NCBI GenBank assembly: GCA_963714275.1
Contig: CAVQNT010000002.1
Location: 160,001 to 224,000 of the forward strand
Length of the DNA: 64,000 bases
Reading direction: 5' to 3'
Source of the DNA: Candidatus Bathyarchaeota archaeon
GTDB taxonomy: Archaea; Thermoproteota; Bathyarchaeia; Bathyarchaeales; DTEX01
Positions 5,018 through 47,937 of this stretch are shown piece by piece. The position numbers and the translations under genes are program-made. Position 1 is the first letter of the stretch. Each line of letters begins with the position of its first letter. Under the pieces are notes generated by a model. The model was not told the DNA's origin. It worked only from the letters and a program-made list of their open reading frames with translations, and made no database searches.

Positions 5018-5340
5018 GGTCTGTTTTGTTCATCATCCGAATTTGCTGTTTGAACAACACTCTGCATTGGCTGAGACCTGTCTGTTTTGTGTGACATTAG
5101 GATTTTCCGTTTGCATAACAATACACAATCTGTGAAGACCTGTCCTGTTTTGTGGCGCACCTACTCTGTTGTTTTGGGACGCAAATCCTGTTTATCATAT
5201 TGATTGTGAAGTTTTTTTTATGAATTTATGGATACGCTGTGGATTTTGGAAAGATTTTCTGGTCTGATGTATGTAACAACAGAGTTTTCAATTTGAGTAA
5301 CAAATCGTAGGCTGTGAAGAATGTGCTTTTTGTAGCGCGA
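5018..5340 (+). repeat. Phased intergenic repeat array, copy A of a dispersed family
   Basis: Paired TTTG sites at 5025/5049, 5086/5110, 5149/5173 and (5268)/5292, plus 5329; 5261-5340 is a degenerate repeat of 5079-5160; colinear with 42743-42865 and, reverse-complemented, with 31300-31385. Confidence 0.8.
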
Positions 5341-17296: not shown

Positions 17297-17397
17297 TGGC
17301 GGGTCCGCTGGGATTTGAACCCAGGGATCTCCGGCTCCGGAGGCTTGCGCGCTTTTATTGTGGCTCGGCGCCTTTATCCTGGCTGGGCCACGGACCC
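17297..17397 (-). tRNA. tRNA-Arg(CCG) with a 21-nt non-canonical intron at position 29/30 (17345-17365); CCA encoded
   Basis: GGGTCCG/CGGACCC acceptor stem followed by G-CCA; D-loop AGCCAGGATA; after splicing the anticodon arm is CCGGC-CT-CCG-GA-GCCGG; T-arm CTGGG-TTCAAAT-CCCAG; BHB central helix GCGC/GCGC. Confidence 0.9.
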
Positions 17398-31299: not shown

Positions 31300-31400
31300 C
31301 TTTTACGCCCAAAAAATGCAGAACAGGTGTGCTGCAAAAAAGAACAGGTCTTCACGGATAATGGCTATTGTCACACAAACAGACCAGTCTGATACACAAT
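31300..31400 (-). repeat. Phased intergenic repeat, copy B (reverse orientation)
   Basis: Reverse complement GTTTGTGTGACAATAGCCATTATCCGTGAAGACCTGTTCTTTTTTGCAGCACACCTGTTCTGCATTTTTTGGG aligns with 5109-5180. Confidence 0.75.
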
Positions 31401-42608: not shown

Positions 42609-42742
42609 TTCGTTTCCATCCAAGAATAGACTATAATACCTTGAGGGATTTAAAAATAAAGAGTCTGGCACAAGAAAACATTCTAGTTCTCTTCCAAAAA
42701 TGGGGAATTATCGTTTAGTCATCGATTTCCATGGGTTCGTCT

Positions 42743-42865
42743 GGTCTGATTTGTTCAACATCCAGAATTGTTGTTTGATCAATAAATGTTGTCTTCGAGA
42801 GGCTATCTGATTTGTGTGACATTCGAGTTTTCCGTTTGTGTGACAAACGCAGAGATTGTGAAAAA
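42743..42865 (+). repeat. Phased intergenic repeat, copy C
   Basis: TTTG pairs at 42750/42774 and 42811/42835; colinear with 5018-5140, including a 23-nt variable linker of identical length. Confidence 0.8.
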
Positions 42866-43026
42866 CAAACGGTTTAAATCGTGTTTGTTCAGTTGTTTCA
42901 GGACAATTGACCCTTTTTTGTGTGGGTTCCTGCGCTTCAAAGATTTTTCTTTAAAAAGAGAAAGCTGTTATGGAAGGTCATAAAAGGTGAAGCTCTTATC
43001 CTAACAATTCATTATGATGTTCAGGC

Positions 43027-45769: not shown

Positions 45770-46111
45770 TTAATACTCGGTGAACTCGATTCTTGTTCGA
45801 TAAAGTATTTTTCCGTCGCCGATGAGGCTGTAACGGTACCCTCCCAAAACTAAAGAGCCAGAATTCCGGATGCGGCCAGTCAAGTAAGAGTCAGTTTCAG
45901 AGGGCATCCATTCGCCTTCACCGTTTTTGGCTGGCTTCCAATGAGTCTTCAGATGAAACTCGTAATCAGTTTGACTGAAGAACTGGCAAACGCAATACCG
46001 ACATTTAATGACCTTCACGCCGTCCACCTTGGTTGGACCCTTACAAATTGAACATCTTTGAGACCAATATTGCTCTTCGTTTTTAACCCTTTTTGTTATG
46101 CCCAAAAACAT
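45770..46111 (-). CDS. Small protein with a canonical C2H2 zinc finger
   Basis: CRYCVCQFFSQTDYEFHLKTH fits C-x2-C-x12-H-x3-H; extra CSIC upstream. Confidence 0.7.
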   Translation of the reverse strand: MFLGITKRVKNEEQYWSQRCSICKGPTKVDGVKVIKCRYCVCQFFSQTDYEFHLKTHWKPAKNGEGEWMPSETDSYLTGRIRNSGSLVLGGYRYSLIGDGKILYRTRIEFTEY

Positions 46112-47614: not shown

Positions 47615-47809
47615 GATAAATGAACTTCTAAAAAAATATTTAAACCCTTCTGCAATATAAAAGCCGATTACACTTGATTTCTTGACATTTAATAGCCTTC
47701 ACGCTGTCCCCCCTAAATATACACTTAAAAGTTAAAATCTTTGAGACCAATATCACTAATTATTTTTTTACTTCATAATATAAAACCAAAAATTTAAAAT
47801 TATGTTATG

Positions 47810-47937
47810 CGGGCCCGCTGGGATTTGAACCCAGGATCTCCGGCTTTCCCTTAGCTTTTTGGGCTTTAGAGGGCCAGCGCGCTGTCCTGGCTGCGCTTCC
47901 CGAACGAGGCCTTGTTTAGGCGCCATTTCACGGGCCC
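47810..47937 (-). tRNA. tRNA-Arg(TCT) with two introns: 32 nt at 9/10 (47897-47928) and 21 nt at 37/38 (47846-47866); no encoded CCA
   Basis: Spliced product GGGCCCG TG GCGC AGCCAGGACA GCGC G CTGGC CC TCT AA GCCGG AGATC CTGGG TTCAAAT CCCAG CGGGCCC G; Arg identity elements A20 and G73; position 33 reads C. Confidence 0.8.

Follow-up and report, generated by a model that had tools for sequence, protein, structure and literature searches.

REP/BIME elements are mosaic intergenic arrays of short units and linkers, present at high copy number and thought to be bound by host DNA proteins; their REP units are imperfect hairpin palindromes that co-occur with a RAYT gene. A second modular design is the BOX element of Streptococcus pneumoniae, for which the portion of the published account consulted here gives the order boxA-boxB(n)-boxC and 125 elements with 422 modules per genome (PMC3049150). 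The same portion describes lone modules, a module number that varies between strains, ends that are terminal inverted repeats like those of ISSpn2, and predicted stem-loops (PMC3049150). The region analyzed here, positions 5018-5340 of a 64,000-nt stretch of bathyarchaeal DNA (the window), represents a single locus of a modular repeat that is intergenic and lineage-restricted, and our preferred though tentative interpretation is that it serves as a multivalent docking array for a sequence-specific candidate protein. Little is known about the non-coding DNA of uncultured archaea such as Bathyarchaeia. A literature search found, in the text accessible to it, no description of such a repeat in this group, and the family is apparently undescribed so far.

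A description made from the letters of the window without database searches (the sequence-only reading) had proposed that three intergenic regions share homology, and direct reading of 5018-5340, 42743-42865, and 31302-31398 agreed with it. The homology is borne out by a 44-nt repeat present in five window copies (5017, 5078, 5260, 42742, and 42803; 61-82% identity to the reference copy) and by an inverted match of 58 nt at 76% identity between 5128-5185 and 31302-31359, returned by a repeat search of the window. Searching for the bipartite pattern CTGNTTTG-N5-CA-N13-TTTG-N5-CA with at most one mismatch gave five window matches against 0.01 expected, a number attained in none of 100 dinucleotide shuffles. 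The TTTG pairs lie where they had been placed (5025/5049, 5086/5110, 5149/5173, 42750/42774, and 42811/42835), as does 5268/5292, in which the 5268 partner is degenerate. Beyond that reading, a well conserved terminal module of its own type (C) was recognised at 5145-5185, a ~98-nt module (D) continues the 42.8-kb copy, and the family proved to be genome-wide. The 31.3-kb copy lies on the minus strand (Table 1). With R1, a sequence-only covariance model of the units, the unit at 5079..5139 scores 60.5 bits. Tails comparable to that at 5186..5219 follow other C modules too, and the ~25-nt left flank is conserved ahead of the first unit in many loci.

Table 1. Parts of the repeat family located in the window
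Feature	Coordinates	Strand	Details
Module A (5' unit)	5018..5077	+	Boxes TTTGTTCATCA at 5025 and TTTGAACAACA at 5049; nhmmer, 65 bits
Module B (middle unit)	5079..5139	+	Boxes at 5086 and 5110; variable linker to CTGTGAAGACC; nhmmer, 68 bits
Module C (3' unit)	5145..5185	+	Boxes TTTGTGGCGCA and TTTGGGACGCAAA; 47 bits; 55-module C alignment
Short tail behind C (..GATTGTGAAG)	5186..5219	+	Terminates in an 8-T run, 5212-5219
Second B unit, more degenerate	5262..5320	+	First box ATGTATGTAACA; module B, 32 bits
Partial B (31348-31398) and C (31302-31343)	31302..31398	-	Repeat search and module profiles
Left flank ("leader"), ~25 nt	42719..42742	+	tCATCGaTTTc..g.GtTTc.gtCTG; information content
Module A (42743-42786), then module B (42806-42852)	42743..42852	+	Module profiles
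Module D, alternative ~98-nt 3' tail	42851..42948	+	68 bits; T5 run at 42944-42948; 29-D-tail alignment

The main locus is flanked by a Dph2-type diphthamide synthesis gene and a URO-D family gene, the 31.3-kb locus by an OMP decarboxylase gene and a 96-aa ORF without a Pfam match, and the 42.8-kb locus by genes for a zinc alcohol dehydrogenase and a lipoate-protein ligase. On their predicted identities, these flanking ORFs are ordinary genes. All three window loci point their 5' end towards a divergent gene. Elsewhere in the window, two ~100-nt tRNA-like genes at 17297-17397 and 47809-47900, both on the minus strand, have a common 27-nt 3' part. ARAGORN reported no tRNA in the window; with the Rfam tRNA model, 47817-47899 reached 25.8 bits where the gathering score is 29, and 17297-17397 gave only stray matches. 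Both are probably archaeal tRNAs with introns, which standard settings overlook. Direct repeats at 46000-46084 and 47684-47767, 74-78% alike and 1.68 kb apart, adjoin a tRNA-like gene.

The window is positions 160001-224000 of contig C2 in G000, a 2.64-Mb assembly of 10 contigs whose 16S matches the archaeal model. Searching this genome with the three window spacers by blastn detected dozens of further loci, and a profile built from five units recovered 90 units at E<0.01. When separate profiles were run for each module and the best score retained, 129 modules (A 43, B 44, C 25, and D 17) were located at 65 loci. Gene calls were crude longest ORFs of at least 90 aa, so distances to gene starts are approximate; although these calls cover 56-83% of each G000 contig, they overlap 281 of the 7101 family bases (4.0%). 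Both the dispersal and the intergenic placement proposed from the window thus extend to the genome. Family loci are confined to contigs C2-C7, with no match to the module profiles on C1, C8, C9, or C10. At the genome-wide density about four modules would be expected on C1 (162 kb); the absence from C1 and C8-C10 could reflect chance, a different replicon, or binning.

Loci follow a common grammar, in which an optional A is followed by one or more B and then by C or the ~98-nt D. The commonest architectures at the loci of G000 and of G002 and G004, two genomes of the same genus, were ABC (17), AC (15), AB (14), BD (10), and ABD (7); longer loci are two elements in tandem. Lone modules occur, and single units and short arrays are common in G000. 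The module consensus sequences show A, B, and C to be variants of one unit, (T)CTG-A/T-TTTG-N5-CA, 13 nt, TTTG-N5-CAA, and a variable linker. Its two boxes are 11-nt near-palindromes of the form TTG-N5-CAA, the first preceded by CTGA/T. Measured between TTTG anchors, the distance from box to box is 24 nt in 300 of 318 units of types A, B, and C, and of 129 neighbouring pairs of units 78 show a period of 61-63 nt, while a smaller group falls at 54-58 nt; both spacings had been read from the window and hold across the family. The boxes of a unit also co-vary: their last three core letters are identical in 217 of 323 units, compared to 65 expected when box 2 is dealt at random, the main core pairs (box 1/box 2) being TGA/TGA (90), CAA/CAA (49), GCG/GCG (37), and TAA/TAA (33).

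Several roles tied to neighbouring genes were considered and rejected. A divergent-promoter marker was abandoned because the four gene-orientation contexts of the G000 loci are about equal genome-wide (17/17/17/14). Relative to the upstream gene there was no co-orientation bias of the kind a terminator would show (31 same, 34 divergent). Among the 130 flanking ORFs in G000, small paralogue groups were the only sign of a recurrent neighbour. A small ORF in D was dismissed, since the 29-D alignment showed its ATG not to be conserved and indels to disrupt every frame. We also observed family loci near rRNA genes. The G000 16S (C6:491752-493254) and 23S (C2:815015-818083) genes lie on separate contigs and are thus unlinked; loci at C6:489839, 493527, and 495462 are close to the former, and one at C2:814121-814299 lies ~0.7 kb downstream of the latter. 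This proximity may reflect the long non-coding flanks of rRNA genes.

We examined how far the family extends among relatives. By blastn it was found in 3 of 31 relatives, all of one genus (G000, G002, and G004). A sequence-only covariance model built from 48 units matched 89 times in G000, 131 times in G002, and 115 times in G004; elsewhere in the family it matched 10 times in G013, which belongs to another genus, and once weakly in each of G001 and G010, with zero matches in the other 41 of the 47 genomes. At the genus level, 3 of 7 genomes therefore carry 89-131 unit matches, three carry none, and the seventh has one weak match. At the order level, the sample of 121 genomes contains 6 with a match at E<=1e-4. 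Direct searches gave 10 matches in G013, 7 in G060, 9 in G075, and 1 in G077, the last three being genomes of two other families. Further copies are accordingly present in G002 and G004 and, as single units, farther afield; most relatives lack them.

The units in G013, G060, G075, and G077 are single and carry genome-specific box variants; boxes are perfect palindromes in G075, as is box 2 of G060. A hand count found the 24-nt spacing kept in three of three single units of other families. Five of the 22 distant units fall inside crude ORF calls, and not all 22 need be real sites. In G013, single units occur in the divergent PyrI/PyrB spacer as well as between convergent genes only 60-90 nt apart, too close for a promoter of their own, and one lies antisense, 33 nt from a gene start. 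Neighbours of the distant units are varied housekeeping genes (PyrI/PyrB, ThiS/NadA, an archaeal integrase, RFC, prephenate dehydratase, Thi4, and others), with diverse Pfam annotations in G013 and G060. The G075 units additionally share flanks, ..ccaagcc.. before and AAAGGATTGGGAACGGAGAGACAGG after, and therefore form a repeat of that genome's own around the same paired-box core. In metagenomes, the B-type pattern was present in at least 120 contigs; the 80 of these that were analyzed contain 193 modules in total, and 59 of them show 75-100% identity to G000.

To trace the history of individual loci, 40 copies from G002 and G004 were mapped by their flanks; these were taken from blastn matches and are not a random sample. 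All nine copies mapped by both flanks fell at a G000 family locus, as did 18 of 27 mapped by one flank, and four were unmappable. Since 27 of the 36 mappable loci are positionally common to G000, the loci are old, and most are positionally common to three species of one genus. The Dph2 and LplA loci of the window have arrays in G002 and G004 (the G004 LplA locus being cut by a contig end). No module match was found at the Dph2 locus of G001 or G006 or at the LplA locus of G001, G005, or G006; the Dph2-URO-D spacer of G001 is short, with its left edge kept. Orthologous loci differ in unit number and type: the site of the 31302..31398 locus, for example, holds an A-C array with other unit content in G002. 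Within ~97% identical DNA, we detected a clean B-C indel block of 172 nt lying between two B units, and unequal recombination is therefore indicated. One filled/empty pair was also seen. At G002:C137:1-1500, an ABD element starts within the stop codon of the upstream gene (..CTGGTCTGA), and the homologous gene end at G000:C2:834400-836100 (..CTAGCCTAA) is without an element. The pre-existing G000 site resembles the element's own 5' end, and this single pair (n=1) is rearranged on one side.

The proposal that spacing is kept while linkers vary freely was examined at 8 orthologous loci outside the window, with 18 motif positions fixed beforehand. Motif positions differed at 15 of 215 comparisons (7.0%), compared to 105 of 303 at other in-unit positions and 92 of 205 in linkers (Fisher p 1.7e-20 versus motif), or 197 of 508 for the rest of the element pooled, with the caveat that aligners favour matching motifs. 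Between species, differences affect 10.5% of codon positions 1+2 and 30.4% of position 3; for element columns the figures are 14.1% where conservation is high and 47% where information is low. These data support long-term constraint on the motif positions. In the short term, evolution of the element looks near-neutral: against contigs at least 95% identical, a comparison that includes one locus region only 81% identical, element identity is 95.3%, compared to 94.4% at codon position 3 and 98.1% at positions 1+2, and substitutions fall at 23 of 559 high-conservation and 35 of 688 other positions. A units are nearer to paralogues in their own genome than to units of the sister species (40 versus 2 in G000; 18 versus 4 in G002), and concerted evolution is therefore at work; it, or self-propagation, could mimic constraint. 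Recent copies are few, with 2-4 units per type at least 95% identical to another locus.

Because the boxes are locked in spacing and co-vary while the linkers are free, recognition by a protein is suggested. The working part of the element would be the paired box, two direct near-palindromic 11-nt copies 24 nt apart. Near-palindromic boxes are usual for sites of dimeric DNA-binding proteins, and each unit would most likely be bound, as double-stranded DNA, by one dimer or tandem dimer of a putative protein. A double-stranded DNA target is favoured because the boxes are near-palindromic, because no RNA structure was detected, and because single units occur where no independent transcript fits; the mixed gene contexts, from a divergent spacer to tight convergent gaps, are easier to reconcile with a DNA site than with one kind of transcript. 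In the G000 genus, such units would be strung at ~61-63 nt intervals into arrays that may grow, shrink, and homogenise through recombination between units. A protein that reads the boxes, its action on DNA rather than RNA, and any advantage for the host are all inferences. Against docking on DNA, no candidate for the binding protein was found, the neighbour genes lack a common theme, and a distance of 24 bp does not complete an integral number of helical turns. The sequence-only reading had suggested a helically phased protein-binding array, and it survives in part: spacing, box co-variation, and motif constraint fit a protein-binding array, but the two boxes are not on one helix face, since 24 bp is ~2.3 turns, and only the 61-63 bp period approaches a whole number (~6).

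A different reader of the same boxes is conceivable if the loci are independently transcribed as unstructured, GU-rich non-coding RNAs, each with a promoter ~45 nt upstream, a leader, the units, and an oligo-U end, whose boxes bind an RNA-binding protein as a scaffold or sponge; we consider this somewhat unlikely. The fixed module order and strand, the G+T-rich element strand, and a placement independent of neighbour orientation fit it, and the polarity, the upstream TATA-like peak, and the downstream T runs would all suit a transcript. Upstream of the first unit, TATA-like hexamers are most frequent at a distance of 31-50 nt (30 starts, 57 G000 loci), where they reach about threefold the level in other intergenic DNA (~10 per 10-nt bin in 100 sequences). 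At loci towards which the upstream neighbour points its 3' end, they still occur in 12 of 29 cases compared to 0 of 29 in the control window. Across four data sets they were present at -55..-25 in 55 of 170 loci, compared to 14 of 170 in the control window, and among metagenome copies in 28 of 75 compared to 9 of 75. Runs of T5+ follow the terminal C or D within 60 nt at 63 of 108 loci, compared to 28 of 108 for A5+ and a baseline of 24% in random intergenic windows. However, G002 (4/21) and G004 (2/17) show the TATA-like signal only weakly, and T-run asymmetry is lacking in G002 (6 versus 7 of 17). Nor is there a fold signal: over 46 whole loci the MFE z-scores averaged +0.16 for the element strand and -0.01 for its reverse, and those of units were ~0 (A, -0.34; B, -0.11; C, -0.30; G013, +0.87), with only the distant G060, G075, and G077 units folding at z about -2.1 to -2.7. 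RNAalifold was weak for each module, with small energies. A structured RNA was rejected. By eye, the BD alignment contains a small GACCAA/UUGGU hairpin that is inconsistently kept, and a terminal GGUCU/AGACC stem per unit was discarded because the alternative junction GAGAGGC lacks compensation. Rfam 15 gave no match at the gathering score anywhere in the window and chance-level matches only at E up to 10. A guide RNA was likewise set aside: linkers are not conserved across orthologues, and the longest 16S/23S duplexes are no better than those of shuffles. The G013 units in 60-90 nt convergent gaps, or antisense near a gene start, are also hard to fit to an independent transcript, and it is not obvious what a single-stranded RNA would gain from palindromic boxes.

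Turnover of the units raises the alternative of a selfish or neutral modular repeat, BOX- or BIME-like in behaviour and without host function, in which the boxes are a requirement of the copying or recombination machinery and old copies decay or are overwritten by conversion or insertion. We regard this as distinctly unlikely, less probable than an RNA role. It would account for the patchy distribution (three of the seven genomes of the genus are rich in units), the differing unit content and clean 172-nt indel at orthologous loci, the near-neutral short-term substitution, the preponderance of same-genome unit relatives, and the G002-filled site that is empty in G000. Against it stand the age of the loci, the scarcity of recent copies, and the persistence of the same boxes and 24-nt spacing across families of the order, as well as the lack of hairpins, of terminal inverted repeats (the A 5' end GGTCTGATTTG was compared by eye with reverse-complemented C/D 3' ends in consensus), and of a fitting mobilising enzyme among the families tested. 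None of PF01797, PF07282, PF01609, and PF00589 follows the repeat: the Y1 transposase (PF01797) is absent from G000, G002, G004, G013, G060, G075, and G077, although the same search matched in 6 of 14 known genomes; TnpB gave no match in G000 and G004 and DDE_Tnp_1 none in G000 and G002; and integrase counts do not track the repeat (1 in G004, 13 in repeat-free G001). As a separate observation, G005, a repeat-free genome of the same genus, has six matches each to Y1_Tnp and the TnpB zinc ribbon; such IS200/IS605-type genes are missing from G000. An array positioning archaeal histones, as tetramers or a hypernucleosome, is highly improbable. The histone tetramer footprint is ~60 bp, and the 61-63 bp unit period is close to that figure, which had led the sequence-only reading to raise the link. 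Over 45 arrays, however, no 10-10.5 bp periodicity was found in AA/TT/AT/TA (z -2.1 at 10 bp and +2.4 at 10.5 bp), the strongest dinucleotide periods, 8 and 12, are divisors of 24, positioning does not need conserved non-periodic boxes, and single units and short arrays are common.

Returning to docking on DNA, a bolder version would make the paired boxes the genomic address of a new sequence-specific architectural or regulatory protein of Bathyarchaeia, with sites order-wide as single units that were multiplied in one genus into ~65 phased arrays per genome, a docking system spanning the chromosome in which paralogous proteins may read the box variants (TGA, CAA, GCG, and TAA cores); we consider this doubtful, and less probable than the RNA alternative. 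Whatever reads it, the family is a sharply defined and testable signal, with boxes constrained about as strongly as protein-coding positions and more than 100 repeats per genome. If a protein reads the boxes, they would open a way into how a major sediment lineage organises its chromosome or regulates genes globally; if the repeat is selfish, its spread without hairpins, inverted ends, or the tested transposases would need a new mechanism. As array length differs between close relatives, the loci could also be a practical marker.

Among known systems, REP/BIME, CRISPR, and C/D sRNA each fail on at least one tested defining feature. A CRISPR array was rejected, in line with the sequence-only reading, because units belong to different module types, are 61-82% alike, and have linkers partly conserved within type. 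Archaeal C/D box sRNA, which carries boxes C (RUGAUGA) and D (CUGA) terminally and C'/D' internally, was rejected because minus-strand matches scored 17-21 bits against gathering scores of 50-70 and depend on a TTCATCA variant lacking conservation. Compared with a MITE, no inverted ends were seen and the DDE_Tnp_1 search gave nothing in G000 and G002. The alternative of a non-coding RNA or a REP/MITE-like family, held open in the sequence-only reading, stands at the level of broad classes, but the tested defining features of REP, CRISPR, and C/D RNA are missing, as are the inverted ends and stem-loops of BOX. Like REP/BIME, the family forms mosaic intergenic arrays of short units and linkers at high copy number; unlike them, its units have z-scores about 0, and PF01797 is absent in seven carrier genomes. 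The near-palindromic TTG..CAA arms recall Lrp-type archaeal boxes, and repeated short boxes with fixed spacing and free linkers are shared with iteron and Lrp-type site arrays. In contrast to such arrays, the family is found at ~65 loci, whichever way the adjacent genes point and even where they converge; its 24-bp spacing falls between whole helical turns, and no such protein was found. BOX, in the portion of its description consulted, is the closest architecture, likened by build alone: the family here has an archaeal host and is without inverted ends, fold signal, or partner IS, but it has in common with BOX a fixed 5' module, variable middle modules, a 3' module, lone modules, and a unit number that varies.
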